DNA of 17,913 nucleotides, from IMG/VR virus record IMGVR_UViG_2778261300_000005, positions 1 to 17,913 of that record. The stretch is one strand, 5' to 3'. A program made the translations under genes and the position numbers. Numbering within the stretch: the stretch's first letter is position 1; each line of letters starts with the position of its first letter. Of the stretch, positions 997 to 17,913 are shown one piece after another. Below the pieces are notes generated by a model, which was not told the origin of the DNA, made no database searches, and saw nothing but the letters and a program-made list of their open reading frames with translations. This DNA comes from a virus (Duplodnaviria; Heunggongvirae; Uroviricota; Caudoviricetes).

Positions 997-1089
997 AAAG
1001 CCCTCCGATGACGCTGTTTACTTCTACTACTTGAAAATTAATGCAATTTTCTTTCGTACATTTACTGCATACATATGCTGAATAAATCG

Positions 1090-1401
1090 TCAGCCAGTCT
1101 TTTGGTCTGAGTGGTGCAAGGTTGTTGAGTCTTGCCCAATGTGCGCGAGCGCCGGGGCTATTTGTCCGCCAGCGGGATCAGTTTCATCAAACATGAACCA
1201 GTCACGGTACTTGCGAAATCTTTCAGGCTTGAAAAATTTCATGCCTGCGTCAAAAGACATCTTTACTTTTCCCTGCTCATATCCAGCATAGGTGTTGTAG
1301 TTAATTCCAGTTAATTCAGCAACTTGCTTCCTTGTCATTCTTTCTGACTCCCGAATAAGTGCGAGTTTCTCTGCTTGAGATGTGATTTGTGTATTTGACA
1401 T
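1090..1401 (-). CDS. C: Immunity repressor, P2 C-type, helix-turn-helix
   Basis: Internal ATG at 1401-1399 gives a 103-aa protein starting MSNTQITSQ. It contains an HTH-like segment (MTRKQVAELTGINYNTYAGYEQG) and the C-terminus GQIAPALAHIGQD...QKTG matches the P2 C repressor C-terminus as I recall it. The ORF-track start at 1449 looks like an upstream extension. Confidence 0.8.
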   Translation of the reverse strand: MSNTQITSQAEKLALIRESERMTRKQVAELTGINYNTYAGYEQGKVKMSFDAGMKFFKPERFRKYRDWFMFDETDPAGGQIAPALAHIGQDSTTLHHSDQKTG

Positions 1402-1505
1402 GAATTGTCGTATCTCGTAATTTATGTTGTATGCGACACGCCAGAACAACGCAGAGCGGCTTCAAATAGCTCTGGTTGAATGGCACCAAAGTTGAGGATA
1501 TCAAA
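1402..1505. promoter_or_regulatory. Divergent early promoter/operator region between repressor and cox (Pc/Pe-like)
   Basis: About 100 bp non-coding gap between divergently transcribed C (minus) and cox (plus), equivalent to the P2 immunity switch. Exact -10/-35 elements and operator repeats are not resolved by eye. Confidence 0.4.
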
Positions 1506-1862
1506 ATGAGTATTGGATCAGAAATGAATAACGATGTTGGAGAAAAAGTATCTGATCTCACAAAAAGTAAAAAATGTGACATCAAACTTGCAGCCGCACC
1601 GTCGGATTTGCTCTCGAAAGAGGGATTTGCTCTTTACATCGGTAAGACGCCTCGTGCTGTTGCTGAAATGGCGAAAGCAGGCAAGTTACCAGCCTTTTAT
1701 ATGACGGACCCATTAAAGCCGGGCGGTCATGCTGAGTTATGGATTAATCGCCGTGAGTGGGACAAGTACGCAGCCCAACTAGTTGATGAAGCTCCGACAG
1801 AATGGCATGACTGGAAAAATCGCATTAGTTACAGCAAATCAAGACATGGCCGTGCGGCTTAA
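1506..1862 (+). CDS. cox: Cox-like excisionase / early regulator
   Basis: ATG at 1506 preceded by GAGGA at 1494-1498. The ORF-track start at 1476 is a TTG. Protein has a GKLP..MTDP segment resembling P2 Cox and is divergent from the repressor. Confidence 0.65.
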   Translation: MSIGSEMNNDVGEKVSDLTKSKKCDIKLAAAPSDLLSKEGFALYIGKTPRAVAEMAKAGKLPAFYMTDPLKPGGHAELWINRREWDKYAAQLVDEAPTEWHDWKNRISYSKSRHGRAA

Positions 1863-3859: not shown

Positions 3860-6134
3860 AGCCTCCGGGCGTTTTGTCCCTCCGTCAGCATTTGCTGCAG
3901 GCACCGGTAAGGCGTTTACCGGTGCTTATGCATGGAACGCGCCACGCGAGGCCGTCGGGCGCGAAAGACCCCTTACACGTGACGAGATGCGTCAGGTGCA
4001 AGGTGTTTTATCCACGATTAACCGCCTGCCTTACTTTTTGCGCTCGCTGTTTACTTCACGCTATGACTACATCCGGCGCAATAAAAGCCCGGTGCACGGG
4101 TTTTATTTCCTCACATCCACTTTTCAGCGTCGTTTATGGCCGCGCATTGAGCGCGTTAATCAGCGTCATGAAATGAACACTGACGCGTCGTTGCTGTTTC
4201 TGGCAGAGCGTGACCATTATGCGCGCCTGCCGGGAATGAATGACAAGGAGCTGAAAAAGTTTGCCGCCCGTATCTCATCGCAGCTTTTCATGATGTATGA
4301 GGAACTCTGCGATGCATGGGTTGATGCACATGGCGAGAAAGAATCGCTGTTTACAGATGAGGCGCAGGCGCATCTGTATGGTCATGTTGCTGGCGCTGCA
4401 CGTGCTTTCAATATTTCCCCTCTCTACTGGAAAAAATACCGTAAAGGACAGATGACCACGAGGCAGGCATATTCTGCCATTGCCCGTCTGTTTAACGATG
4501 AGTGGTGGACTCATCAGCTTAAAGGCCAGCGTATGCGCTGGCATGAGGCGTTACTGATTGCTGTCGGGGAGGTCAATAAAGACCGTTCTCCTTATGCCAG
4601 TAAACATGCCATTCGTGATGTGCGTGCACGCCGCCAGGCAAATCTGGAATTTCTTAAATCGTGTGACCTCGAAAACAGGGAAACCGGCGAGCGCATCGAC
4701 CTTATCAGTAAGGTGATGGGCAGTATTTCTAATCCTGAAATTCGCCGGATGGAGCTGATGAACACCATCGCCGGTATTGAGCGTTACGCCGCCGCAGAGG
4801 GTGATGTGGGGATGTTTATCACTCTGACCGCGCCGTCAAAGTATCACCCGACACGTCAGGTCGGAAAAGGCGAAAGTAAAACCGTCCAGCTAAATCACGG
4901 CTGGAATGATGAGGCATTTAATCCAAAGGATGCGCAGCGTTATCTCTGCCGCATCTGGAGCCTGATGCGCACGGCATTCAAGGATAATGATTTACAGGTC
5001 TACGGTTTGCGAGTCGTCGAGCCACACCACGACGGAACGCCGCACTGGCATATGATGCTTTTTTGTAATCCACGCCAGCGTAACCAGATTATCGAAATCA
5101 TGCGTCGCTATGCGCTCAAAGAGGATGGTGACGAAAGAGGAGCCGCGCGAAACCGTTTTCAGGCAAAACACCTTAACCGGGGCGGTGCTGCGGGGTATAT
5201 CGCGAAATACATCTCAAAAAATATCGACGGCTATGCACTGGATGGGCAGCTCGATAACGATACCGGCAGACCGCTGAAAGATACTGCCGCGGCTGTTACC
5301 GCATGGGCGTCAACGTGGCGCATTCCGCAATTTAAAACGGCTGGCCTGCCGACAATGGGTGCTTACCGTGAACTACGCAAATTGCCTCGCGGCGTCAGCA
5401 TTGCTGATGAGTTTGACGAACGCGTCGAGGCTGCACGCGCCGCCGCAGACAGTGGTGATTTTGCGTTGTATATCAGCGCGCAGGGCGGGGCAAATGTCCC
5501 GCGCGATTGTCAGACTGTCAGGGTCGCCCGTAGCCCGTCGGATGACGTTAACGAGTACGAGGAAGAAGTCGAGAGAGTGGTCGGCATTTACGCGCCGCAT
5601 CTCGGCGCGCGTCATATTCATATCACCAGAACCATGGACTGGCGCATTGTGCCGAAAGTGCCGGTCGTTGAGCCTTTGACTTTAAAAAGCGGCATCGCCG
5701 CGCCTCGGAGTCCTGTCAATAACTGTGGAAAGATCACCGGCGGTAATACTTCGTTACCGGCTCCCACGCCTTCTGAGCACGCCGCAGCAGTGCTTAATCT
5801 GGTTGATGACGGTGTTATCGAATGGAATGACCCGGAGGTCGTGAGGGCGCTCAGGGGCGCATTAAAATACGGGCTGAGAACACCAAATCGTCAGCAGAGA
5901 AACGGAAGCCCGTTAAAACCACATGAAATTGCACCATCGGCCAGACTGACCCGGTCGGAAAGAATGCAAATTACCCGTATCCGCGTTGACCTTGCTCAGA
6001 ACGGTATCAGGCCGCAGCGATGGGAGCTTGAGGCGCTGGCGCGTGGCGCGACCGTAAATTATGACGGGAAAAAATTCACGTATCCGGTCGCTGATGAGTG
6101 GCCGGGATTCTCAACAGTAATGGCGCGGACATAA
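3849..6134 (+). CDS. A: Replication initiator protein A (rolling-circle, HUH endonuclease)
   Basis: ATG at 3849 gives 761 aa beginning MAVKASGRFVPPSAFAAGTGK, which matches P2 gpA as I recall it, including its length. Contains the HUH-type metal-binding motif EPHHDGTPHWHMMLF. The ORF-track start at 3807 is a TTG extension. Confidence 0.92.
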   Translation: MAVKASGRFVPPSAFAAGTGKAFTGAYAWNAPREAVGRERPLTRDEMRQVQGVLSTINRLPYFLRSLFTSRYDYIRRNKSPVHGFYFLTSTFQRRLWPRIERVNQRHEMNTDASLLFLAERDHYARLPGMNDKELKKFAARISSQLFMMYEELCDAWVDAHGEKESLFTDEAQAHLYGHVAGAARAFNISPLYWKKYRKGQMTTRQAYSAIARLFNDEWWTHQLKGQRMRWHEALLIAVGEVNKDRSPYASKHAIRDVRARRQANLEFLKSCDLENRETGERIDLISKVMGSISNPEIRRMELMNTIAGIERYAAAEGDVGMFITLTAPSKYHPTRQVGKGESKTVQLNHGWNDEAFNPKDAQRYLCRIWSLMRTAFKDNDLQVYGLRVVEPHHDGTPHWHMMLFCNPRQRNQIIEIMRRYALKEDGDERGAARNRFQAKHLNRGGAAGYIAKYISKNIDGYALDGQLDNDTGRPLKDTAAAVTAWASTWRIPQFKTAGLPTMGAYRELRKLPRGVSIADEFDERVEAARAAADSGDFALYISAQGGANVPRDCQTVRVARSPSDDVNEYEEEVERVVGIYAPHLGARHIHITRTMDWRIVPKVPVVEPLTLKSGIAAPRSPVNNCGKITGGNTSLPAPTPSEHAAAVLNLVDDGVIEWNDPEVVRALRGALKYGLRTPNRQQRNGSPLKPHEIAPSARLTRSERMQITRIRVDLAQNGIRPQRWELEALARGATVNYDGKKFTYPVADEWPGFSTVMART

Positions 6135-6436
6135 TGACAAAGATTCACAAAGTAAAGCTGCACGCAAGATATTTCAACCTTGTGCTGGAGGGAAAAGAAA
6201 CGCACAGAATTTAGGGGGATAGCCGTTATCATGTGTATGAAGCACTTGAAATGTATCTGCATCACTTGGGAGTGTGTCAACGGGGAATTTCCATCTATGT
6301 GATTTTTTGAGAGCAATGCAGTGAAGATAAAGATACTTATTATAAATCAATGTGATAGATGATGCCTCGCAAACGTAAATGATAGTTTTGAAGCTTCAGG
6401 GCTGATGTCGTTCATAAGACTATGTTTACGCTATCA

Positions 6437-6469
6437 TTTATGATAAAAATAATTAATTTTTATCATAAA
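6437..6469. promoter_or_regulatory. Near-perfect 33-bp palindrome (14-bp arms TTTATGATAAAAAT / ATTTTTATCATAAA) directly upstream of the ParB-like gene; candidate operator/promoter
   Basis: Read directly from the sequence; one central mismatch. It lies about 15-50 bp upstream of the ATG at 6485. Related ATGATA/TATCAT half-sites recur at about 6375-6384 and 6431-6444. Confidence 0.35.
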
Positions 6470-6484
6470 GATTCAACAGAGGAT

Positions 6485-7996
6485 ATGTTGATGAATCAAC
6501 TAAAATCAATGAATATCAATAAGTTACTTTTGGATGTTGATAACCCTCGTTTCCCGACGTCAGCAGAAAATCAGCGTGATGCTATTGCCAAGATGCTTGA
6601 CTTGCAGTACGACCGCATTTATCGCTTGGCTAAAGATATTGCTTCGAAAGGTTTAGATCCGTCTGAAAACATATTAGTTTATCCTAGTGAAGAGGAATCT
6701 GGCTTTTTCGTCGTTGCTGAAGGTAATCGTCGAGTTACAGCCCTTAAACTTTTACACTCTCCTAGACTTGCACCAACAGAAAAAGCACGGAAAGCTTTTG
6801 AAAAACTTAAGATTACTCAGCTTAAAGATATTAATGTTATAGATAACTGCGTTCTTTTTGACGATGATGAATATGAGCATTGGGTTAATTTAAAGCATAC
6901 TGGTCAAAATGCTGGAGTTGGAAGAGTTGAATGGACTGCAACAGAAAAAGCACGGCATCTGGCTAGGATGGGTAAGCAGTCATTTGGTAATCAAATACTT
7001 ACATTTATAGAGTTCAATACTGATTTATATAAAGAGATAATTGCTAAAAAAAGACTTTTAAAAATCACAAACATCACGCGTCTTTTTGGTGATTTAAAGG
7101 TGAGGGATTATTTTAATTTAAAAAGCATTAATGGAGTTCTATACTCATATCAGCCTTATGAACGTTTTTGTGCACAATTAAAAAATATTTTAGATGTAAT
7201 GATTGAAGAGGATGATAAAGGTAAGGCTTGTTTTACTGTTAATAGGATTCGTAGCCAAGATGACAGGGTTACATTTATTATTGAACAAAAAATAAAACCT
7301 TCAGAATCTCTTTTAGATAAGCCGTGGAGTTTACTGGAGCCTAAATCTTTTCTTACAGAGAAAAAAGATGATTCTATTGACAAAAATGATGCCTCTGTGA
7401 GTGTAAAGAAAGTAGGTCTTTCAGAAGGTGATGCCTTAAAGAATACAGGTATGGATAAACAGGAAGATGATTATTCTAGACATGTAGGCACAGAAGAGAG
7501 TAAATCTAAAGTTTCGGGTACGGAACAGAATAAAAGCAAGGGAAAAACTCCTCCTAAAGTAGATCGTAATGTGTTGGTGCCATCTTATGTGAAATTTAAT
7601 TTTAGAGGGCATAAAAAATGCTCTAGAATATTTAATGAGCTTAAGTCGCATCTGACATTTGATAATACCCCTAATGCTATCTCAATATTGTTGAGAATAT
7701 TTATAGATCTCTCTGTAAGCACTTTTGTTGAAGAAAACAAGTTACAATTTAAGGAACCGCATAGAACTCCAGGGCTTCATGATAAGGTTAAAATGTGTGC
7801 TAATTTCCTTCGGGAAAATAAAAAGATGACGGGGAGTCAATGTACGGCTGTAATAACTTTCTCGAGCCAAATAACTAAACATGATGGTTCATTGCAGCAG
7901 TATGTACATAACCCACACTTAATTCCCTCAAAAGAGGCTGTCAACACTGAGTGGGATAACTTTGAGTTGTTATTAAGCCTTATTTGGAGTGAGTGA
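6485..7996 (+). CDS. ParB/Srx-like N-terminal domain protein with low-complexity linker and uncharacterised C-terminal domain (cargo gene 1)
   Basis: ORF 6422..7996; likely start ATG 6485 or 6491, with AGAGGA at 6478-6483. N-terminus has ParB-like box motifs (INKLLLDVDNPRF and ILVYP...FVVAEGNRRVTALKLL, compare ParB GERRxRA). Strongly AT-rich, unlike the phage backbone. Confidence 0.7.
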   Translation: MLMNQLKSMNINKLLLDVDNPRFPTSAENQRDAIAKMLDLQYDRIYRLAKDIASKGLDPSENILVYPSEEESGFFVVAEGNRRVTALKLLHSPRLAPTEKARKAFEKLKITQLKDINVIDNCVLFDDDEYEHWVNLKHTGQNAGVGRVEWTATEKARHLARMGKQSFGNQILTFIEFNTDLYKEIIAKKRLLKITNITRLFGDLKVRDYFNLKSINGVLYSYQPYERFCAQLKNILDVMIEEDDKGKACFTVNRIRSQDDRVTFIIEQKIKPSESLLDKPWSLLEPKSFLTEKKDDSIDKNDASVSVKKVGLSEGDALKNTGMDKQEDDYSRHVGTEESKSKVSGTEQNKSKGKTPPKVDRNVLVPSYVKFNFRGHKKCSRIFNELKSHLTFDNTPNAISILLRIFIDLSVSTFVEENKLQFKEPHRTPGLHDKVKMCANFLRENKKMTGSQCTAVITFSSQITKHDGSLQQYVHNPHLIPSKEAVNTEWDNFELLLSLIWSE

Positions 7997-8009
7997 GATT
8001 TGTCTACAT

Positions 8010-8027
8010 CTGGACATGGATGTCCAG
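8010..8027. promoter_or_regulatory. Inverted repeat CTGGACAT-GG-ATGTCCAG between the two cargo genes; candidate operator
   Basis: Perfect 8-bp arms read directly from the sequence, about 40 bp upstream of the methyltransferase ATG. The 2-nt spacer argues for a protein-binding palindrome rather than a hairpin terminator. Confidence 0.3.
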
Positions 8028-8065
8028 AAACTGATAAACTACAAAATCAGGAATGAGAGGGATTT

Positions 8066-8950
8066 ATGAAATTTTATACTCCATTAAGATACCCCGGCGG
8101 GAAAGGTAAGTTATCTTACTTTTTAAAAGATGTTATTGAAAAAAACTCGTTGAATGATGGAGCATATGCAGAACCTTACGCTGGTGGTGCAGGGGTGGCT
8201 TTAGAATTATTATTGGAAGAGTATGTCCGTAAAATCTATATAAATGATGCAGATTTTGCTGTTTATTCTTTTTGGTCATCTGTTGTTAGTGATACTGATG
8301 AGCTTTGCCGACTTATTAGCCGAGCAAAGATAGATATGGATGAATGGTCTTTTCATCGCTATGTTATTTCGAATCCTTCTGAGTTTACTAAGCTTGAGGT
8401 TGGCTTTGCTGCGTTTTTCTTAAATAGAACAAATCGTTCAGGTATTCTCAAGGCGGGGGTTATAGGTGGGAAATCACAAAATGGAAAATGGAAAATGGAT
8501 GTTCGCTTTAACAGGGCGGATTTAATTTCAAGAATTGAGAAGATAGCAAATTATAATCAAAGAATAGTAGTAACTAATCTGGATGCTTTGGATTTTCTTG
8601 ATGCCTTGAATTTTATGGATAATATGGGAAAGGTGGATAAAAATAAAATTCTTTTGTATTTGGATCCTCCTTACTATATTAAAGGGCAAGGGCTTTACAG
8701 GAATTTTTATGAGCATGATGATCATGTATTGGTTATGAAGAAACTCACAGAAATTAATTTCCCAAATTGGCTTGTTTCTTATGATAATGCTAAGGAAATT
8801 AAAGATATTTATAATGAATTTCCGCAAGTTGAGTATTCATTGCAATATACAGCGCATCTCAAAAAATCTGGAGAGGAAGTGATGATTTTTTCTCCTGAAA
8901 TAATTATTCCTAATACCCTGAAAGGGGTCTCAATGCCAACTTGCGCCTGA
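8066..8950 (+). CDS. D12-class (Dam-like) N6-adenine DNA methyltransferase (cargo gene 2)
   Basis: 294 aa; ATG at 8066 preceded by GAGAGGG. N-terminal LRYPGGKGKL and AEPYAGGAGVALELL resemble the E. coli Dam AdoMet-binding region (LKWAGGK, VEPFVGAGSV). FFLNRTNRSG resembles Dam LYLNRYGYNG. The catalytic DPPY motif is present (LYLDPPYY). AT-rich. Confidence 0.85.
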   Translation: MKFYTPLRYPGGKGKLSYFLKDVIEKNSLNDGAYAEPYAGGAGVALELLLEEYVRKIYINDADFAVYSFWSSVVSDTDELCRLISRAKIDMDEWSFHRYVISNPSEFTKLEVGFAAFFLNRTNRSGILKAGVIGGKSQNGKWKMDVRFNRADLISRIEKIANYNQRIVVTNLDALDFLDALNFMDNMGKVDKNKILLYLDPPYYIKGQGLYRNFYEHDDHVLVMKKLTEINFPNWLVSYDNAKEIKDIYNEFPQVEYSLQYTAHLKKSGEEVMIFSPEIIIPNTLKGVSMPTCA

Positions 8951-9097
8951 TTTTACTTATTTTTTGTCAGTAAGTAATTAGTTTGGTGCATTTATTTGCA
9001 TTCATTTTTAAATGCCAGTTCTGGTATCTGACATCAGTGCTGGCGCATTCTGACCATTACTGCTGCACTGCATTTAAAGCCCTGCATGAAGCGGGCG

Positions 9098-9116
9098 GGC
9101 GAGGCGGGGAAAGCAC
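9098..9116. other. cos site (19-nt cohesive end, P2-type)
   Basis: GGCGAGGCGGGGAAAGCAC matches the P2 cohesive-end sequence as I recall it. It lies between the cargo module and the leftward Q gene, as in P2. Confidence 0.6.
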
Positions 9117-9258
9117 TGCGCGCTGGCGGTGGTGCTGATTTTATTTTTTCAGCGTCTGAGCGCGTCGTGATGGCGTTTAGATTGTGCGCCGGGGTGTTGG
9201 TGTGTCTGCGGGATGTTTTGTGCGGTGGTGAGCGTGTGAGGGCGTGATGACGGGGTGT

Positions 9259-9280
9259 AAAAAAGCCGCCCGCAGGCGGC
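9259..9280 (-). terminator. Rho-independent terminator downstream of Q (minus strand)
   Basis: Minus strand reads GCCGCC-TGCG-GGCGGC followed by TTTTTT, immediately after the Q stop codon at 9286-9288. Confidence 0.5.
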
Positions 9281-9285
9281 GATGT

Positions 9286-10320
9286 TCAGCCGTTGTCAGT
9301 GTCCAGTGAGTAGTTTTTAAAGCGGATGACCTCCTGACCGAGCCAGCCGTTTATCTCGCGGATCCTGTCCTGTAACGGGATAAGCTCATTGCGGACAAAG
9401 ACCTTTGCCACTTTCTCAATATCACCCAGCGACCCGACGTTCTCCGGCTTGCCGCCCATCAACTGAAAGGGGATGCGGTGCGCGTCCAGCAGGTCTGCGG
9501 CACTGGCTTTTTTGATATTAAAAAAATCGTCCTTCGTCGCCACTTCACTGAGCGGGATAATTTTAATGCCGTCGGCTTTCCCTTGTGGGGCATAGAGAAA
9601 CAGATTTTTAAAGTTGTTGCGGCCTTTCGACTTCACCATGTTTTCGCGAAGCATTTCGATATCGTTGCGATCCTGCACGGCATCGGTGACGTACATGATG
9701 TATCCGGCATGTGCGCCGTTTTCGTAATACTTGCGGCGGAACAGCGTGGCCGATTCATTCAGCCAGGCAGAGTTAAGGGCGCTGAGATATTCCGGCAGGC
9801 CGTACAGCTCCTGATTAATATCCGGCTCCAGCAGGTGAAACACGGAGCCGGGTGCGAAGGCTGTCGGCTCGTTGAAGGACGGCACCCACCAGTAAACATC
9901 CTCTTCCACGCCACGGCGGGTATATTTTGCCGGTGAGGTTTCCAGTCTGATGACCTTACCGGTGGTGCTGTAACGCTTTTCCAGAAACGCATTACCGAAC
10001 ACCAGAAAATCCAGCACAAAGCGGCTGAAATCCTGCTGGGAAAGCCACGGATGCGGGATAAATGTCGAGGCCAGAATATTGCGTTTGACGTAAATCGGGG
10101 AGCTGTGATGCACGGCAGCACGCAGGCTTTTTGCCAGACCGGTAAAGCTGACCGGTGGCTCATACCATCTGCCGTTACTGATGCACTCAACGTAATCCAG
10201 AATGTCACGGCGGTCGAGTACCGGCACCGGCTCGCCAAAGGTGAATGCTTCCATTTTCGGGGCGCTGGCGGTGATTGTTTTTGCCGCAGGTCGCGGTGTT
10301 TTCCCTTTTTTCTTGCTCAT
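9286..10320 (-). CDS. Q: Portal protein (capsid portal vertex), P2 gpQ
   Basis: 344 aa, the same length as P2 Q as I recall; leftward orientation adjacent to cos; start overlaps the P stop by 1 nt. Confidence 0.9.
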   Translation of the reverse strand: MSKKKGKTPRPAAKTITASAPKMEAFTFGEPVPVLDRRDILDYVECISNGRWYEPPVSFTGLAKSLRAAVHHSSPIYVKRNILASTFIPHPWLSQQDFSRFVLDFLVFGNAFLEKRYSTTGKVIRLETSPAKYTRRGVEEDVYWWVPSFNEPTAFAPGSVFHLLEPDINQELYGLPEYLSALNSAWLNESATLFRRKYYENGAHAGYIMYVTDAVQDRNDIEMLRENMVKSKGRNNFKNLFLYAPQGKADGIKIIPLSEVATKDDFFNIKKASAADLLDAHRIPFQLMGGKPENVGSLGDIEKVAKVFVRNELIPLQDRIREINGWLGQEVIRFKNYSLDTDNG

Positions 10321-12092
10321 CAGTAAAACTCCAGAATGGTGGATGTCAGCGGGGGGCTGATACCGGCGGTGAGTGGCTCATTTAACAGGGCGTGCATGGT
10401 CGCCCAGGCGAGGTCGGCGTGGCTGGCTTCCTCGCTGCGGCTGGCCTCATAGGTGGCACTGCGTCCGCTGCTGGTCATGGTCTTGCGGATAGCCATAAAC
10501 GAGCTGGTGATGTCGGTGGCGCTGACGTCATATTCCAGACAGCCACGGCGGATAACGTCTTTTGCCTTGAGCACCATTGCGGTTTTCATTTCCGGCGTGT
10601 AGCGGATATCGCGCGCGGCGGGATAGAACGAGCGCACGAGCTGGAACACGCCGACACCGAGGCCGGTGGCATCAATCCCGATGTATTCAACGTTATATTT
10701 TTCGGTGAGTTTGCGGATGGATTCCGCCTGGGTGGCAAAGTCCATGCCTTTCCACTGGTGACGCTCAAGTATTCTGAATTTGCCACCGGCCACCACCGGC
10801 GGTGCCAGCACCACGCATCCGGCGCTGTCGCCACGGTGTGACGGGTCGTAACCAATCCATACCGGGCGGGAGCCGAACGGATTGGCGGCAAACGGCGCAT
10901 AGTCTTCCCATTCTTCCAGCGTGTCGACCATGCAGCGTTGCAGCTCCTCGAACGGGAACACCGACGCCTTGTCGTCAACAAATTCACACATGAACAGGTT
11001 TTTAAAATCGTCGGCGCTGTTTTCACGTTTGAGCTGCTCAATGTCGAACAGCGTGCAGCCACCTTTCAGGGCGTCCTCAATGGTGACAATCTGCCGCCAC
11101 TGGCCGTCCGCACAGAGAAGCCCACCGGCAAGGGCGTTATGACTGACGTCGATTTCCACGCGTTCGGCGGCGCTGGCGCGTCCCCGGTTGAACAGTTCAC
11201 CTGACCAGAACGGGTAGGCGTCGTGCGCCAGCGTGGACGGGGTGGAGAAATAGGTCGAACGCAGGTGACTCTGTGAGGCCATACCTGATGCCACCTTACG
11301 CAGTACCTGAAAATTCGGGATCCAGAAAATCTCGTCGACGTACAGGTCGCCGTTATGGCTCTGTGCGGTGTTGGAGTTGGTGCCGAGAAAAATCAGTTTT
11401 GCGCCGTTATTGCCCAGGACAATCGGGTCACCGGTCAGGTCAACGTCAACCAGACGGGCAAAGGCGATGATGTATTCGCGGAACACATACGCCTGCGTTT
11501 TACTGGCCGACAGAAAAATCTGGTTATGACCGGTTTTCAGGGCGCGCAGCAGCGCCTCGCGGGAAAAATAAAACGTCGCGCCAATCTGACGGGATTTCAG
11601 GATATCGCGGATGCGGTGCTCAAGCCCGGCGCGATACCAGTGCAACTGATATTCGAAAGACTGCTCAAAGAAAATCTGCTCCAGCTTTTCGATGGCCTCG
11701 TCACTGAAAAAATTCTTTTTCGGTTTGCGCCGCCCGCCTTTGTTGCGGTTAGCGACGTTCGGATTAAGGTCTGCCTCGTTGCCGGTCTGGCTGTAGCGGT
11801 TGACCCGTGCCAGTCGTTCAATCTGGCGTCCGAGCAGGTCAATTTCCTTGAAGTCACCGCCGGTTTTCTGCGGTTTGATGATGAGCTGGGTCAGCCGCGC
11901 TTCCAGACTCATTTCGACACGGCTGATGGGGGCAACGCTGTCCCAGCCGTCGCGCTGTTTCCAGCTCTGCACCGTCGGGCGTTTCATCTGCAACATGGCG
12001 GCAATCTGCGGCACGGAAAACCCCTGCCAGTACAGCAGCGCCGCCTGACGACGCGGGTCGTGTAAAAGAGTGGTGTCTGTGGTGATGGTCAT
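10320..12092 (-). CDS. P: Terminase large (ATPase) subunit, P2 gpP
   Basis: ATG at 12092-12090 gives 590 aa starting MTITTDTTLLHD, matching the P2 P length as I recall. The ORF-track start at 12122 is an upstream extension. Confidence 0.9.
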   Translation of the reverse strand: MTITTDTTLLHDPRRQAALLYWQGFSVPQIAAMLQMKRPTVQSWKQRDGWDSVAPISRVEMSLEARLTQLIIKPQKTGGDFKEIDLLGRQIERLARVNRYSQTGNEADLNPNVANRNKGGRRKPKKNFFSDEAIEKLEQIFFEQSFEYQLHWYRAGLEHRIRDILKSRQIGATFYFSREALLRALKTGHNQIFLSASKTQAYVFREYIIAFARLVDVDLTGDPIVLGNNGAKLIFLGTNSNTAQSHNGDLYVDEIFWIPNFQVLRKVASGMASQSHLRSTYFSTPSTLAHDAYPFWSGELFNRGRASAAERVEIDVSHNALAGGLLCADGQWRQIVTIEDALKGGCTLFDIEQLKRENSADDFKNLFMCEFVDDKASVFPFEELQRCMVDTLEEWEDYAPFAANPFGSRPVWIGYDPSHRGDSAGCVVLAPPVVAGGKFRILERHQWKGMDFATQAESIRKLTEKYNVEYIGIDATGLGVGVFQLVRSFYPAARDIRYTPEMKTAMVLKAKDVIRRGCLEYDVSATDITSSFMAIRKTMTSSGRSATYEASRSEEASHADLAWATMHALLNEPLTAGISPPLTSTILEFY

Positions 12093-12265
12093 GAATACCT
12101 CGCCGTGATGAATACACGGCAAGGCTACTGAGTCGCGCCCCGCGATTCGCTAAGGTGCTGTTGTGTCAGTGATAAGCCATCCGGGACTGATGGCGGAGGA
12201 TGCGCATCGTCGGGAAACTGATGCCGACATGTGACTCCTCTAATCACTATTCAGGACTCCTGACA
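12093..12265. promoter_or_regulatory. Divergent late promoter region (P2 Pp/Po equivalents, Ogr-dependent)
   Basis: Non-coding gap between the divergent P and O genes, where P2 has its Ogr-activated late promoters. I did not confidently locate the TGT-N12-ACA activator dyad by eye. Confidence 0.4.
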
Positions 12266-13120
12266 ATGGCAAAAAAAGTCTCAAAATTCTTTCGTATCGG
12301 CGTTGAGGGTGACACCTGTGACGGGCGTGTCATCAGTGCGCAGGATATTCAGGAAATGGCCGAAACCTTTGACCCGCGTGTCTATGGTTGCCGTATTAAC
12401 CTGGAACATCTGCGCGGCATCCTGCCTGACGGTATTTTTAAACGTTATGGTGATGTGGCTGAACTGAAGGCCGAAAAGATTGACGATGATTCGGCGCTGA
12501 AAGGCAAATGGGCGCTGTTTGCGAAAATCACCCCGACCGATGACCTTATCGCGATGAACAAGGCCGCGCAGAAGGTCTACACCTCAATGGAGATTCAGCC
12601 GAACTTTGCCAACACCGGCAAATGTTATCTGGTGGGGCTGGCCGTCACCGATGACCCGGCAAGCCTCGGCACGGAATATCTGGAATTCTGCCGCACGGCA
12701 AAACACAACCCCCTGAACCGCTTCAAATTAAGCCCTGAAAACCTGATTTCAGTGGCAACGCCCGTTGAGCTGGAATTTGAAGACCTGCCTGAAACCGTGT
12801 TCACCGCCCTGACCGAAAAGGTGAAATCCATTTTTGGCCGCAAACAGGCCAGCGATGACGCCCGTCTGAATGACGTGCATGAAGCGGTGACCGCTGTTGC
12901 TGAACATGTGCAGGAAAAACTGAGCGCCACTGAGCAGCGCCTCGCTGAGATGGAAAACGCCTTTTCCGCACTTAAGCAGGAGGTGACTGACAGGGCGGAT
13001 GAAACCAGCCAGGCATTCACCCGCCTGAAAAACAGTCTCGACCACACCGAAAGTCTGACCCAGCAGCGCCGCAGCAAGGCCACCGGCGGTGGCGGAGACG
13101 CCCTGATGACGAACTGCTGA
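12266..13120 (+). CDS. O: Capsid scaffolding protein, P2 gpO
   Basis: ATG at 12266 gives 284 aa (MAKKVSKFFRIGVEGD...), matching P2 O length; coiled-coil-like C-terminus; directly upstream of the major capsid gene. Confidence 0.85.
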   Translation: MAKKVSKFFRIGVEGDTCDGRVISAQDIQEMAETFDPRVYGCRINLEHLRGILPDGIFKRYGDVAELKAEKIDDDSALKGKWALFAKITPTDDLIAMNKAAQKVYTSMEIQPNFANTGKCYLVGLAVTDDPASLGTEYLEFCRTAKHNPLNRFKLSPENLISVATPVELEFEDLPETVFTALTEKVKSIFGRKQASDDARLNDVHEAVTAVAEHVQEKLSATEQRLAEMENAFSALKQEVTDRADETSQAFTRLKNSLDHTESLTQQRRSKATGGGGDALMTNC

Positions 13121-13178
13121 CCGGCGTCAGTCAGTCCGGGAAAACCTTCACGATTAACCCTTAATTTCAGGAACAAAT

Positions 13179-14252
13179 ATGCGCCAGGAAACCCGTTTAA
13201 AATTTAATGCCTACCTGTCCCGTGTTGCCGAACTGAACGGCATCGACGCCGGTGATGTGTCGAAAAAATTCACCGTTGAACCGTCGGTCACCCAGACCCT
13301 GATGAACACCATGCAGGAGTCCTCTGACTTTCTGACCCGCATCAACATTGTGCCGGTCAGCGAAATGAAAGGGGAAAAAATTGGTATCGGTGTCACCGGC
13401 CCCATTGCCAGCACCACCGACACCGCCGGTGGCACCGAGCGTCAGCCGAAGGACTTCTCGAAGCTGGCGTCCAACAAGTACGAATGCGACCAGGTTAACT
13501 TCGATTTTTATATCCGCTACAAAACGCTGGACCTGTGGGCGCGTTATCAGGATTTCCAGCTCCGTATCCGTAATGCCATTATCAAACGCCAGTCCCTTGA
13601 TTTCATCATGGCCGGTTTTAACGGCGTGAAGCGTGCCGAAACCTCTGACCGCAGCAGCAATCCGATGCTGCAGGATGTGGCGGTCGGCTGGCTGCAGAAA
13701 TACCGCAATGAAGCTCCGGCGCGCGTGATGAACAAGGTCACTGACGAGGAAGGTCGCACCACCTCTGAGGTTATCCGCGTGGGCAAGGGCGGTGATTATG
13801 CCAGCCTTGACGCACTGGTGATGGATGCGACCAATAACCTGATTGAACCGTGGTATCAGGAAGACCCTGACCTTGTGGTGATTGTGGGACGTCAGCTACT
13901 GGCGGACAAGTATTTCCCCATCGTCAACAAGGAGCAGGACAACAGCGAAATGCTGGCCGCTGACGTCATCATCAGCCAGAAACGCATCGGTAACCTGCCG
14001 GCGGTACGCGTCCCGTACTTCCCGGCGGATGCGATGCTCATCACGAAGCTGGAAAACCTGTCCATCTACTACATGGATGACAGCCATCGCCGCGTGATTG
14101 AGGAAAACCCGAAACTCGACCGCGTGGAGAACTACGAGTCAATGAACATTGATTACGTGGTGGAAGACTACGCCGCCGGCTGTCTGGTGGAAAAAATTAA
14201 GGTCGGTGATTTCTCCACACCGGCCAGGGCAACCGCAGAGCCGGGAGCGTAA
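13179..14252 (+). CDS. N: Major capsid protein, P2 gpN
   Basis: 357 aa, matching P2 N length; follows the scaffold gene. Confidence 0.9.
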   Translation: MRQETRLKFNAYLSRVAELNGIDAGDVSKKFTVEPSVTQTLMNTMQESSDFLTRINIVPVSEMKGEKIGIGVTGPIASTTDTAGGTERQPKDFSKLASNKYECDQVNFDFYIRYKTLDLWARYQDFQLRIRNAIIKRQSLDFIMAGFNGVKRAETSDRSSNPMLQDVAVGWLQKYRNEAPARVMNKVTDEEGRTTSEVIRVGKGGDYASLDALVMDATNNLIEPWYQEDPDLVVIVGRQLLADKYFPIVNKEQDNSEMLAADVIISQKRIGNLPAVRVPYFPADAMLITKLENLSIYYMDDSHRRVIEENPKLDRVENYESMNIDYVVEDYAAGCLVEKIKVGDFSTPARATAEPGA

Positions 14253-14255
14253 CCG

Positions 14256-14999
14256 ATGACGAGTCCCGCACAGCGCCACATGATGCGGGTCTCGGCAGCG
14301 ATGACCGCGCAGCGGGAAGCCGCCCCGCTGCGACATGCAACTGTCTATGAGCAGATGCTGGTTAAGCTCGCCGCAGACCAGCGCACACTGAAAGCGATTT
14401 ATTCAAAAGAGCTGAAGGCCGCGAAAAAACGCGAACTGCTGCCGTTCTGGTTGCCGTGGGTGAACGGCGTGCTGGAGCAGGGCAAAGGCGCACAGGATGA
14501 CATTCTGATGACGGTCATGCTGTGGCGTCTGGATACCGGCGATATTGCCGGTGCGCTGGAGATTGCCCGTTATGCCCTGAAGTACGGTCTGACCATGCCG
14601 GGTAAACACCGCCGCACCCCGCCGTACATGTTCACCGAGGAGGTCGCGCTTGCGGCCATGCGTGCCCACGCTGCCGGTGAGTCTGTGGATACCCGCCTGC
14701 TGACGGAGACCCTTGAACTGACTGCCGCTGCTGACATGCCTGATGAAGTGCGCGCAAAGCTGCACAAAATCACCGGTCTGTTTCTGCGTGACGGTGGTGA
14801 TGCCGCCGGTGCGCTGGCGCACCTGCAACGTGCGACACAGCTCGACTGTCAGGCAGGCGTCAAAAAAGAGATTGAACGACTGGAGCGGGAGCTGAAACCG
14901 AAGCCGGAGCCGCAGCCCAAAGCGGCCACCCGTACCCCGCGTAAGACCCGGAGCGTGACACCGGCAAAACGTGGACGCCCGAAAAAGAAAGCCAGTTAA
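14256..14999 (+). CDS. M: Terminase small (endonuclease) subunit, P2 gpM
   Basis: 247 aa, matching P2 M length; basic K/R-rich C-terminal tail; follows N. Confidence 0.85.
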   Translation: MTSPAQRHMMRVSAAMTAQREAAPLRHATVYEQMLVKLAADQRTLKAIYSKELKAAKKRELLPFWLPWVNGVLEQGKGAQDDILMTVMLWRLDTGDIAGALEIARYALKYGLTMPGKHRRTPPYMFTEEVALAAMRAHAAGESVDTRLLTETLELTAAADMPDEVRAKLHKITGLFLRDGGDAAGALAHLQRATQLDCQAGVKKEIERLERELKPKPEPQPKAATRTPRKTRSVTPAKRGRPKKKAS

Positions 15000-15098
15000 C
15001 AACCGAATGCGCCCCGCGCCAGGGCGGCACGCCGGTCAGTGTGGGTGAATCACCTGACACTGTTCCGGCGTCCACCGCCCGACTTTTCTGAGGTAGTC

Positions 15099-15608
15099 AT
15101 GATGACGCTGATTATTCCGCGAAAGGAGGCTCCCGTGTCCGGTGAGGGTACGGTGGTCATCCCGCAACCGGCAGGCGACGAGCCGGTGATTAAAAACACG
15201 TTCTTTTTTCCCGATATCGACCCGAAGCGCGTCCGGGAACGTATGCGCCTTGAGCAGACCGTCGCCCCCGCCCGTCTGCGTGAGGCCATCAAGTCAGGCA
15301 TGGCGGAGACGAATGCGGAGCTGTACGAGTACCGCGAACAGAAAATTGCCGCCGGTTTTACGCGTCTGGCGGACGTTCCGGCGGACGACATCGACGGTGA
15401 AAGCATCAAAGTTTTTTACTACGAGCGCGCCGTGTGTGCGATGGCGACCGCGTCGCTTTATGAGCGTTACCGCGGCGTGGATGCCAGTGCGAAAGGCGAC
15501 AAGAAGGCTGACAGCATTGACAGCACCATTGATGAGCTGTGGCGGGATATGCGCTGGGCGGTGGCGCGTATCCAGGACAAGCCGCGCTGCATCGTGAGTC
15601 AAATCTGA
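15099..15608 (+). CDS. L: Head completion/stabilisation protein, P2 gpL
   Basis: ATG at 15099 gives 169 aa (MMTLIIPRKEAP...), matching P2 L length. The ORF-track start at 15039 is an extension. Confidence 0.85.
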   Translation: MMTLIIPRKEAPVSGEGTVVIPQPAGDEPVIKNTFFFPDIDPKRVRERMRLEQTVAPARLREAIKSGMAETNAELYEYREQKIAAGFTRLADVPADDIDGESIKVFYYERAVCAMATASLYERYRGVDASAKGDKKADSIDSTIDELWRDMRWAVARIQDKPRCIVSQI

Positions 15609-15811
15609 TGAAGACCTTTGCGCTACAGGGCGACACGCTCGACGCCATTTGTGTCCGGTATTACGGGCGCACTGAGGGCGTGGTCGAGGCCGTGCTCGCC
15701 GCAAATCCGGGACTGGCTGAACTGGGTGCGGTGCTGCCACACGGCACCGCCGTCGAACTGCCCGACGTTCAGACCGCGCCCGTGGCTGAAACTGTCAATC
15801 TGTGGGAGTAA
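15608..15811 (+). CDS. X: Tail protein X-like (P2 gpX)
   Basis: ATG at 15608 overlaps the L stop (TGATG). 67 aa (MKTFALQGDTLDAICVRYYG...), matching P2 X length. Confidence 0.8.
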   Translation: MKTFALQGDTLDAICVRYYGRTEGVVEAVLAANPGLAELGAVLPHGTAVELPDVQTAPVAETVNLWE

Positions 15812-15814
15812 CGC

Positions 15815-16096
15815 ATGACAGCAGAAGAAAAAAGCGTCCTGTCGCTTTTCATGATTGGGGTGCTGATTGTTGTCGGCAAGGTGCTTGCCGGTGGTGAACC
15901 CATCACCCCGCGTCTGTTTATCGGGCGCATGTTGCTCGGTGGTTTTGTCTCGATGGTTGCCGGTGTTGTTCTGGTGCAGTTTCCTGACCTGTCACTGCCT
16001 GCGGTGTGCGGCATCGGCTCCATGCTGGGTATCGCCGGTTATCAGGTGATTGAGATTGCCATTCAGCGCCGCTTTAAGGGCAGGGGGAAACCGTAA
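15815..16096 (+). CDS. Y: Holin, P2 gpY
   Basis: 93 aa with hydrophobic membrane segments (LSLFMIGVLIVVGKVLAGG...); immediately upstream of the endolysin; TAATG overlap with the K start. Confidence 0.75.
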   Translation: MTAEEKSVLSLFMIGVLIVVGKVLAGGEPITPRLFIGRMLLGGFVSMVAGVVLVQFPDLSLPAVCGIGSMLGIAGYQVIEIAIQRRFKGRGKP

Positions 16097-17019
16097 TGCC
16101 GGTAATTAACACGCATCAGAATATCGCCGCCTTTCTCGACATGCTGGCAGTGTCCGAAGGGACGGCGAATCATCCGCTGACGAAAAACCGTGGCTATGAC
16201 GTGATAGTCACCGGACTGGACGGGAAGCCGGAAATCTTCACCGACTACAGTGACCACCCGTTCGCGCATGGCCGACCGGCGAAGGTGTTTAACCGTCGCG
16301 GTGAAAAATCCACGGCCTCCGGTCGCTATCAGCAGCTTTACCTGTTCTGGCCGCATTACCGCAAACAGCTTGCCCTGCCGGATTTCAGTCCGTTGTCACA
16401 GGACAGGCTCGCCATTCAGTTGATCCGCGAACGCGGTGCACTGGATGACATCCGGGCGGGACGCATTGAGCGCGCCATTTCACGCTGTCGCAATATCTGG
16501 GCGTCCCTGCCGGGTGCCGGTTACGGTCAGCGTGAGCATTCACTGGAAAAACTGGTCACCGTCTGGCGTACCGGCTTAAACGGAGTAAACACCATGAAGA
16601 AATTATCCCTTTCACTGATGCTGAACGTGTCGCTGGCGCTGATGCTGGCACTGTCCCTGATTTACCCGCAGAGCGTGGCCGTCAGTTTTGTCGCTGCCTG
16701 GGCGATTCTGGCGACGGTTATCTGTGTGGTTGCCGGTGGTGTCGGCGTGTATGCCACTGAGTATGTGCTGGAACGCTACGGGCGGGAGCTGCCGCCGGAA
16801 TCGCTGGCCGTGAAGATTGTCACGGCGCTGTTTTTGCAGCCGGTGCCGTGGCGCAGACGGGCGGCGGCTCTGGTGGTGATGGTGGCGACGTTTATCGCGC
16901 TGGTCGCCGCCGGGTGGATTTTTACCGCGCTGATTTATCTCGTGGCGTCGGTGTTCTTCCGGCTGATACGTAAAGCCTGTCGTCAGCGTCTTGAGGGGCG
17001 GGAATTATGTCAAAGCTGA
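16096..17019 (+). CDS. K: Endolysin (P2 gpK-like) whose reading frame continues without a stop into the LysA-like membrane protein (307-aa continuous ORF)
   Basis: N-terminal 165-166 residues (MPVINTHQNIAAFLDMLAVSEGT...) are the P2 K-type endolysin. The frame stays open through ATG 16594 into a hydrophobic 141-aa LysA-like region and ends at TGA 17017-17019. Confidence 0.75.
   Translation: MPVINTHQNIAAFLDMLAVSEGTANHPLTKNRGYDVIVTGLDGKPEIFTDYSDHPFAHGRPAKVFNRRGEKSTASGRYQQLYLFWPHYRKQLALPDFSPLSQDRLAIQLIRERGALDDIRAGRIERAISRCRNIWASLPGAGYGQREHSLEKLVTVWRTGLNGVNTMKKLSLSLMLNVSLALMLALSLIYPQSVAVSFVAAWAILATVICVVAGGVGVYATEYVLERYGRELPPESLAVKIVTALFLQPVPWRRRAAALVVMVATFIALVAAGWIFTALIYLVASVFFRLIRKACRQRLEGRELCQS
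16594..17019 (+). CDS. lysA: LysA-like membrane protein (antiholin/lysis-timing), possibly expressed from the internal ATG
   Basis: Internal ATG at 16594 gives 141 aa (MKKLSLSLMLNVSLALMLAL...) with multiple predicted transmembrane segments; same length as P2 LysA as I recall. Confidence 0.6.
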   Translation: MKKLSLSLMLNVSLALMLALSLIYPQSVAVSFVAAWAILATVICVVAGGVGVYATEYVLERYGRELPPESLAVKIVTALFLQPVPWRRRAAALVVMVATFIALVAAGWIFTALIYLVASVFFRLIRKACRQRLEGRELCQS

Positions 17020-17432
17020 TGATTGTGCTGGTCGTGTTGTTATCGCTGGCGGTGGCGGGGCTGTTTCTGGCAAAGCATGAAAACGCCAGCCTGCGCGCCT
17101 CGCTGGACAGGGCGAACAACGTCGCCAGTGAACAGCAGACGACCATCACCATGCTGAAAAACCAGCTTCATGTTGCCCTTACCAGGGCAGACAAAAACGA
17201 GATGGCGCAGGTGGCACTGCGTCAGGAACTGGAGAACGCCGCGAAGCGTGAAGCACAGCGCGAGAAAACCATCACGAGGTTACTTAATGAGAACGAAGAT
17301 TTTCGCCGCTGGTACGGTGCTGACCTGCCTGATGCTGTGCGCCGGTTGCACCAGCGCCCCGCCTGCACCGACGCCAGTGATTGTCCCCAACGCATGCCCG
17401 AAAGTGAGCCTTTGCCCGATGCCGGGCAGTGA
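17007..17432 (+). CDS. lysB: LysB, Rz-like inner-membrane spanin
   Basis: 141 aa; N-terminal transmembrane segment (LMIVLVVLLSLAVAGLFLA) followed by charged coiled-coil-like periplasmic region; start overlaps the lysA stop. Confidence 0.75.
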   Translation: MSKLMIVLVVLLSLAVAGLFLAKHENASLRASLDRANNVASEQQTTITMLKNQLHVALTRADKNEMAQVALRQELENAAKREAQREKTITRLLNENEDFRRWYGADLPDAVRRLHQRPACTDASDCPQRMPESEPLPDAGQ

Positions 17433-17613
17433 CCCGCAGACGAACGGCGATTTAAGTGCCGATAAAGTGTCAGGCTTTAAGCGCGTCATAGACGAGCAGG
17501 ACTGGACAATCACTAAGGTGACACATTTTCTTAATAATAGCGGCTTCACGACGTCCTTAGATCTTGAGGTCAGGCTTTCTGATGTGGAGTACGAAACAGA
17601 AGATGATGAGTGA
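17287..17613 (+). CDS. lysC: LysC, Rz1-like outer-membrane lipoprotein spanin, embedded in the +1 frame of lysB and extending past it
   Basis: ATG at 17287 inside lysB; signal peptide with lipobox (LMLCAGC); proline-rich mature region (APPAPTPVIVP). The ORF-track start at 17170 is an extension. Confidence 0.65.
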   Translation: MRTKIFAAGTVLTCLMLCAGCTSAPPAPTPVIVPNACPKVSLCPMPGSDPQTNGDLSADKVSGFKRVIDEQDWTITKVTHFLNNSGFTTSLDLEVRLSDVEYETEDDE

Positions 17614-17694
17614 TGTTTTTATTTTATCTGTTTGTTTTATAAGGATAAATTAACTAAAATAACACCATCAACAAAACCGGAAGAGGTGCTCGCG

Positions 17695-17913
17695 ATGTTT
17701 CATTGTCCTTTATGCCAGCATGCCGCACATGCGCGTACAAGCCGCTATATCACTGACACGACAAAAGAGCGTTATCACCAGTGCCAGAACGTGAATTGCA
17801 GCGCCACGTTCATCACCTATGAGTCGGTACAGAGATACATCGTGAAGCCGGGAGAAGTCCACGCCGTAAGGCCGCACCCGTTGCCGTCAGGGCAGCAAAT
17901 TATGTGGATGTAA
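17695..17913 (+). CDS. ogr: Late gene transcriptional activator Ogr (C4 zinc finger)
   Basis: ATG at 17695 gives 72 aa (MFHCPLCQHAAHARTSRYITDTTKERYHQCQNVNCSATFITYESVQRYIVKPGEVHAVRPHPLPSGQQIMWM), which matches P2 Ogr as I recall it; CxxC...CxxxxC zinc finger. Confidence 0.9.
   Translation: MFHCPLCQHAAHARTSRYITDTTKERYHQCQNVNCSATFITYESVQRYIVKPGEVHAVRPHPLPSGQQIMWM

Follow-up and report, generated by a model that had tools for sequence, protein, structure and literature searches.

A 14-bp deletion at a direct repeat joins the endolysin gene K and lysA in one reading frame in a defective P2-like prophage of Escherichia coli

The lysis region of the prophage described here raises the question of how the endolysin gene K and the following gene lysA, which are separate genes in phage P2, came to share a single open reading frame (ORF), and what such a frame would mean for lysis. 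The window, i.e., the whole stretch of 17,913 nucleotides that was analysed, holds a complete but defective P2-like (Peduovirus) E. coli prophage, from int to ogr, integrated beside pflB. The head genes L and X and the lysis genes Y, K, lysA and lysB lie in P2-type order at 15099-17429, as located by tblastn with the proteins of Yersinia phage L-413C, and the TAA stop codon of Y overlaps the start codon of K (TAATG). A preliminary description of this DNA had reported that the K frame is open into lysA, and both the ORF list and the sequence agree with it: from the ATG at 16096 no stop codon is met before the TGA at 17017-17019, giving a single ORF of 307 aa and 34.2 kDa on the plus strand. Its translation contains LEKLVTVWRTGLNGVNTMKKLSLSL and reads SLEKLVTVWRTGLNGVNTMKKLSLSLML across the lysA ATG at 16594.

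The sizes given in that description for the separate P2 genes, about 165 aa for K and 141 aa for LysA, are right for L-413C, in which the two genes are separate and 14 nt apart. The fused ORF is composed of K residues 1-159, a seven-residue linker, GLNGVNT, and the complete LysA of 141 aa, which is 92% identical to the LysA of L-413C over its whole length. The linker stands in for the native K C-terminus, AGGVPA followed by a stop codon, so that K lacks its last six residues. The three stop codons previously noticed in the +1 frame relative to K are also present, at 16577-16579 (TAA), 16586-16588 (TAA) and 16595-16597 (TGA). P2-type cassettes have K as a separate soluble protein, ~165 aa long and ended by a stop codon of its own; the window has no such K. 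The coordinates of the features are collected in Table 1.

Table 1. Features of the lysis region and of the right-hand end of the prophage, in window coordinates.
Feature	Position	Strand	Observation
Gene Y (holin)	15815..16096	+	Intact, 93 aa; 100% identity over 93 aa to L-413C gpY; PF04550 Phage_holin_3_2
Fused K-lysA ORF	16096..17019	+	307 aa, 34.2 kDa; exact protein on at least three public contigs
K-derived part, codons 1-159, lambda-R-type endolysin catalytic domain	16096..16572	+	100% identity to L-413C gpK 1-159
Deletion scar, lone copy of the 9-bp repeat GGCGTACCG	16565..16573	+	Alignments; two copies, 14 bp apart, in intact relatives
Frame-shifted linker GLNGVNT	16573..16593	+	Former K 3′ end with the spacer before lysA, translated in the lysA frame
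TAA that ended the ancestral K, no longer in frame	16577..16579	+	Sequence and alignment
lysA Shine-Dalgarno sequence GGAG	16582..16585	+	8 nt 5′ of ATG 16594; same in intact relatives
lysA part, four-TMD antiholin-type membrane protein	16594..17019	+	Full length, 141 aa; NF038378 at residues 167-300, E 8e-34
lysB (Rz-like i-spanin)	17007..17432	+	Intact, 141 aa; ORF list and tblastn
Chimeric ORF, LysC (Rz1-like o-spanin) 1-59 plus last 49 residues of tail protein D	17287..17613	+	
Junction of the ~14.2-kb deletion	17464..17466	.	blastn against L-413C; lost R, S, V, W, J, I, H, G, FI, FII, E, T, U and most of D
ogr (late-gene activator)	17695..17913	+	Intact, 72 aa; followed by host pflB in the source contig

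The small indel near the 3′ end of K that had been suggested from the stop codons was borne out by alignment, in the form of a 14-bp deletion in the last K codons. In a megablast comparison with phage records and complete E. coli genomes, the K-lysA span is 938 bp in nearly all relatives, against 924 bp in the window. The junction was aligned with L-413C and E. coli Z142-6 as references, and the ancestral junction in both reads ACCGTCT GGCGTACCG CYGGC GGCGTACCG GCTTAAACGGAG, that is, GTCT-repeat-CYGGC-repeat-GCTTAA. The lost 14 bp correspond to one copy of the 9-bp direct repeat together with the 5-bp spacer: GGCGTACCG occurs once in the window, at 16565, and twice in the L-413C locus, at 1970 and 1984, and the junction of the deleted allele reads CACCGTCTGGCGTACCGGCTTAAACGG. 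From this repeat geometry we infer that the 14 bp were lost by slipped-strand mispairing during replication, of which a deletion of this kind is a classic outcome.

In L-413C, K ends with VWRTAGGVPA-TAA and lysA begins 14 nt further on, in a frame offset by 2. Since 14 mod 3 is 2 and the 24 codons 5′ of the lysA ATG hold no stop codon in its frame, the K frame is now the lysA frame. The lysA frame is open for these 24 codons only, and a fusion is possible only by a net -2/+1 shift within the last ~58 nt of K. The Shine-Dalgarno sequence of lysA lies outside the deleted stretch. Read against these alignments, the 307-aa ORF is no chance ORF: two genuine genes have been brought together by a single, defined deletion of 14 bp.

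None of the 75 matching P2-like phage records carries the deletion, all of them having the 14 bp, which also occur in at least 120 IMG/VR contigs, with no contig showing the deleted junction, and in all but one of ~1,480 E. coli prophage copies. More distant homologues of K (59-78% identity), taken from Pseudomonas, Dickeya, Serratia, Pandoraea, Stenotrophomonas and Ralstonia, are about 168-177 aa long and end with xGG and a short tail. Since the relatives keep the 14 bp and the distant homologues keep the K ending, separate K and lysA genes represent the ancestral state and the window a deletion from it. The exact 27-mer spanning the junction was not found in the GTDB species representatives, in IMG/VR or in the JGI metagenome contigs. 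Among 5,426 complete E. coli genomes, a 45-nt junction query, chosen so that non-carriers are unable to seed it, gave one full-length match, in strain ESDR8. The 79 records with at least 95% identity returned by a 100-bp junction search were rejected as carriers, as their alignments were partial and covered one flank. The preliminary description had considered that intact relatives might show the same in-frame arrangement as a normal feature of their lineage; its absence from the phage records, from IMG/VR, from the GTDB representatives and from the metagenome contigs led to the rejection of this possibility. On the sequences searched, the deletion is a rare allele and no normal feature of the lineage.

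The ESDR8 prophage (NZ_CM169472.1) carries the identical 14-bp deletion at the same repeat. Its K gene (AC0WU4_RS00060) is annotated by PGAP as a pseudogene, "incomplete; missing C-terminus", and lysA is annotated separately. This P2-like prophage ends at ogr-pflB, the same site as in the window, and the record NZ_CM169472.1 begins inside the prophage. The ESDR8 prophage retains its tail genes, with an IS21 element inserted in the one for tail-fibre assembly. In order to establish whether the two deletions share an origin, four-taxon site patterns were compared for the window, Z142-6, ESDR8 and CUVM53. Across Y-lysB the window differs from ESDR8 by 37 mismatches and from the intact Z142-6 by 5, and ESDR8 differs from the intact CUVM53 by 11. 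Thirty of the 32 informative sites group the window with Z142-6 and ESDR8 with CUVM53, and two, one of them at 16236, group the two carriers. Because the haplotype of ESDR8 differs from that of the window, the most parsimonious reading is that the deletion arose twice, and the site patterns suggest that two independent deletions probably occurred at the repeat.

It is rather unlikely that the two deletions are instead identical by descent, moved between prophages by a short recombination or gene-conversion tract at the pflB site. Such a transfer would fit with the shared ogr-pflB integration site, with the mosaic nature of P2-like prophages and with the two sites that pair the window with ESDR8; however, the discordant sites 16356 and 16626 flank the deletion on both sides, so the shared tract would have to be shorter than 270 bp, the large majority of the informative sites favour the other grouping, and recurrence is what is expected of a slippage deletion at a direct repeat.

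To what extent the fused ORF resembles an endolysin was assessed by homology. Residues 9-158 of the fusion align with chain residues 7-147 of lambda R (1AM7/3D3D) with an E value of about 1e-41 (phmmer against PDB), making K a close homologue of lambda R, and the homology to the catalytic domain of lambda-R-like endolysins (GH104/GH24 in the NCBI naming) includes the SEGT region of the catalytic Glu; E21, G22 and T23 are invariant in an alignment of 26 sequences. A C-terminal xGG is found in 21 of 23 diverse homologues, as AGG in 18 of them, and the window reads WRT-GLNG instead. Lambda R presumably has a C-terminal xGG as well. A local Pfam-A scan assigned no family to K, LysA or the fusion. 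The NF038378 model (DNZ54_00345 family, corresponding to LysA) matched residues 167-300 with 116.5 bits against a cut-off of 40, and the precomputed domain annotation of the 307-aa protein gives PF28015, LysA, only.

Hydropathy shows four hydrophobic segments in the LysA part, at residues ~170-189, 193-217, 257-275 and 276-293, which is the profile of a protein with four transmembrane domains (TMDs). The charged residues follow a positive-inside pattern, with MKK at the LysA N-terminus, six K/R in the central loop and five K/R in the C-terminal tail. K residues 1-159 contain no hydrophobic segment, with a maximum 19-residue Kyte-Doolittle mean of 0.92, and thus resemble neither a SAR endolysin nor a secreted one. 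Because of the K/R pattern, we infer that the LysA part is oriented N-in/C-in, which, as K has no export signal, would leave the catalytic domain on the cytoplasmic side. This orientation agrees with the four TMDs of P2 LysA, an antiholin (PMC3091744, which also gives the roles of the other P2 lysis genes). In the AlphaFold2 model of the fusion (mean pLDDT 75.7) a helix runs continuously from K into TMD1 over residues 150-189; the LysA half had almost no alignment depth, and the model served to place the final helix of K and the short tether, while LysA topology was not read from it. The catalytic domain would be tethered ~10 residues from TMD1 of LysA, at the cytoplasmic face of the inner membrane.

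From this predicted arrangement, the fused endolysin would not be freely diffusible, and little or none of it would be released through the lesion formed by Y, a class I holin. Free LysA may still arise by initiation at its own ribosome binding site, probably at a lower level. A fusion of lambda R to beta-galactosidase, engineered by Wang, Deaton and Young (2003), reportedly supports holin-dependent lysis; the protein is said to be soluble and to keep the full R sequence, and a large C-terminal extension need not, on that result, abolish endolysin function. In the window, on the other hand, K is extended by an integral membrane protein and has lost the conserved AGG at its end. By analogy, this family of enzymes may tolerate a C-terminal extension, which makes the inactivation of the fused endolysin uncertain.

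The rest of the prophage was compared with the lysis cassette Y-K-lysA-lysB-lysC of P2/L-413C, which has the same genes in the same order as the window, with 92-100% protein identity, and in which Y is the holin, K a lambda-R-type endolysin, LysA a four-TMD antiholin and LysB/LysC spanins of the Rz/Rz1 type. The window differs from it not only in the single K-lysA ORF, with K deprived of AGGVPA, but also in the loss of the tail genes and in lysC, which is cut after codon 59 and followed by a remnant of the tail gene D. In the blastn comparison with L-413C, window 17000-17464 corresponds to L126 18-482 and window 17466-17911 to L126 14723-15167; at 17464 lysC directly abuts the last 49 codons of D, and no useful microhomology was seen at this junction of the ~14.2-kb deletion. 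Thirteen tail proteins gave no tblastn match in the window. Among ~404 complete E. coli genomes with a P2-like prophage at this site, none has the tail-deletion junction of the window. The two-component spanin is likewise not intact, LysB being whole and LysC keeping residues 1-59 of the 96 of its intact form, fused to the D remnant. As the tail genes are missing, the element is unable to make virions, and as LysC is truncated, its spanin is damaged. Taken together, the fusion and the truncated LysC suggest that the lysis cassette is probably impaired.

The genes int, C, cox, B, A, Q, P, O, N, M, L, X, Y, lysA, lysB and ogr are full length in the window, the pflB flank that follows ogr in the source contig is 99.8% identical to E. 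coli, and PD-Lambda-5 is present as a complete system. Over residues 1-159, K still matches the K of a functional phage at 100% identity. Because this part of K is unmutated and the other genes are full length, the lesion would be recent and the decay little advanced beyond the two deletions. As is expected in prophage decay, functional relatives lack the lesion, and other inactivating lesions accompany it; the two prophages that carry the 14-bp deletion are both damaged, that of the window in the tail genes and lysC and that of ESDR8 by IS21. That both are defective fits with relaxed selection, although, with two carrier lineages, this is weak statistically.

These results make it highly probable, in our judgement, that the fused frame reflects a rare but real slipped-strand 14-bp deletion in a decaying P2-like prophage and not an evolved fusion protein. 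Slippage at the very end of K would have removed one repeat copy and the 5-bp spacer; K would then be read past its old stop codon, through the spacer and all of lysA, into a product K(1-159)-GLNGVNT-LysA(1-141) of 34.2 kDa; and the fusion would lose the conserved C-terminal AGG and hold the catalytic domain at the cytoplasmic face of the membrane. The tail module and the C-terminal third of LysC would have been lost earlier or as well, the lesion under relaxed selection being one step of the decay.

A functional or selected fusion, in which a K-LysA chimera is made and is useful, either for the timing of lysis or by disarming a lethal cassette so that PD-Lambda-5 can be retained, appears quite improbable. 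The presence of the same deletion on two haplotypes would agree with selection, but the 9-bp repeat with its 5-bp spacer fully accounts for recurrence without it. The catalytic domain is free of mutations, and the lysA Shine-Dalgarno sequence and the downstream genes are intact, which speaks for a useful product; against this, the deletion removes a motif conserved in nearly all of the homologues compared, and both carriers have other inactivating lesions. A complete PD-Lambda-5 would give the host a reason to retain the element; nevertheless the allele, seen in no phage record or IMG/VR contig and in one of the ~1,480 E. coli copies, is kept in no replicating phage lineage.

Natural endolysins with C-terminal TMDs, M4Lys of Salmonella phage BSPM4 and the Hafnia phage Enc34/Chivirus type, lyse cells, and as in the window fusion they have an N-terminal peptidoglycan-degrading domain followed by C-terminal helices. 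Their catalytic family is however unrelated (PHA02564/virion-protein domain), and they have one or two helices, whereas the membrane part of the window fusion is the four-TMD antiholin of a separate gene, joined by a rare mutation. The architecture of M4Lys and Enc34 is conserved across a phage clade and has been shown to lyse cells, while a fused form of K and lysA was absent from the 75 P2-like phage records and from IMG/VR. Furthermore, K would lie on the cytoplasmic side, unlike exported or SAR endolysins. That K-LysA is a recurrently selected disarming allele, or a tethered enzyme at the rim of the holin lesion that alters lysis timing, is scarcely probable; were it so, a host that keeps the prophage for PD-Lambda-5 would gain from a membrane-tethered, non-releasable endolysin, and the 9-bp repeat at the 3′ end of K would be a built-in hotspot for a frequent disarming switch.

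To the possibility of a sequencing or assembly artefact, raised in the preliminary description, with a true genome that holds the 14 bp and separate K and lysA genes, we give almost no weight, since, although some of the many lone aberrant K fusions in protein databases probably stem from errors of assembly or frame (e.g., P0002), the lesion is a loss of 14 bp between 9-bp direct repeats, unlike a homopolymer length error or a typical platform error, window 6096-17913, which includes it, agrees at all 11,818 bp with the NCBI assembly GCA_002518655.1 (NOMQ01000008.1) and with the independent Logan assembly of another run (SRR29736265), and the same deletion is found in the unrelated chromosome-level assembly of ESDR8. 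The NCBI and Logan contigs come from different pipelines, each contig was found in two samples, and a third public contig likewise encodes the exact 307-aa protein. On these assemblies the 14-bp deletion appears to be real, an artefact being very unlikely.

The slipped-strand deletion in a decaying prophage is an event ordinary in kind, and in ESDR8 PGAP has already treated its outcome as a pseudogene. Its biological weight is small, and it provides a clean case of such a deletion fusing adjacent phage genes. If the fusion is made and is inactive, it would be a natural allele asking whether a canonical holin releases a membrane-anchored endolysin, a question more directly addressed by engineered constructs. 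The case also bears on annotation: gene callers give a 307-aa "LysA-domain" protein where PGAP gives a K pseudogene and lysA. The 307-aa chimera sits in a LysA protein cluster of 2,429 members, and chimeras of this kind pollute protein clusters.

Other singleton read-through proteins were seen in the protein database. In P0001 a 47-bp deletion joins GGTTAC to CGCTGGC, and in P0002 there are two frame changes. Different lesions thus yield the same K read-through, and the fusion-competent target measures merely ~58 nt.

The lysis cassette of the window element carries, besides the 14-bp deletion fusing the endolysin gene K to lysA, a second lesion, which is the truncation of the o-spanin gene lysC, to which the C-terminus of gpD is joined in frame. 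This chimera arises at the junction of a deletion of approximately 14.2 kb that has removed the whole tail module (R through the greater part of D) and places lysC codon 59 directly against the final 49 codons of D. No real microhomology was found at the deletion junction, and none of the complete Escherichia coli genomes in the collection has the same lysC-D junction.

Features of the window element discussed in the text
Feature	Position	Strand	Remarks
Immunity and integration module	1-1811		
PD-Lambda-5, whole system	6422-8950	+	
PD-Lambda-5 gene A	6422-7996	+	PADLOC PDLC03998, E 6e-168, full length
PD-Lambda-5 gene B, D12-class methyltransferase	8066-8950	+	PDLC04018, E 8e-122
lysC-gpD chimeric ORF, 108 aa	17287-17613	+	lysC residues kept 59/96
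Junction of the tail-module deletion	17464-17466		

A complete anti-phage defence system of two genes, PD-Lambda-5, occupies the P2 cargo position, with the replication gene A on one side and the portal gene Q on the other, and this cargo may explain why the host has retained a tail-less prophage.

Judged by sequence identity, the immunity and integration module of the element is different from that of the intact P2-type Yersinia phage L-413C: the integrase, the C repressor and cox are 55, 38 and 35% identical to their L-413C counterparts, respectively, compared to 90-100% for the remainder of the element. The distinct module is consistent with the attachment site between ogr and pflB, which is also used in about 404 complete E. 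coli genomes.

The 14-bp deletion was found in only one other complete genome, that of E. coli ESDR8 (L127, NZ_CM169472.1). In the ESDR8 prophage the tail-fibre assembly gene, annotated as a pseudogene, is split by an IS21-family element (istA/istB; region 18391-21202 of L127), and a P-loop NTPase cargo gene is flanked by S and V.

The protein database also holds singleton aberrant K proteins of several kinds (P0001-P0033, and the gene at 514-1404 of the ENA metagenome scaffold L128). They include a further K-LysA fusion originating from a 47-bp deletion (P0001), one with two frame-shifts (P0002) and a K with an internal duplication (P0003); in others K is fused with holin, small terminase subunit, capsid or baseplate V sequence, the partners being read from precomputed Pfam hits (PF04550, PF05944, PF05125 and PF18715). 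Some of these singletons are likely genuine lesions in prophages, and others errors of assembly. Finally, the copy in E. coli Yu5 (NZ_CP200247.1 3344067-3344179, H77) measures 113 bp, versus 114 bp, against the 100-bp query spanning the K/lysA junction of the window, suggesting a 1-bp indel close to this junction in yet another prophage.
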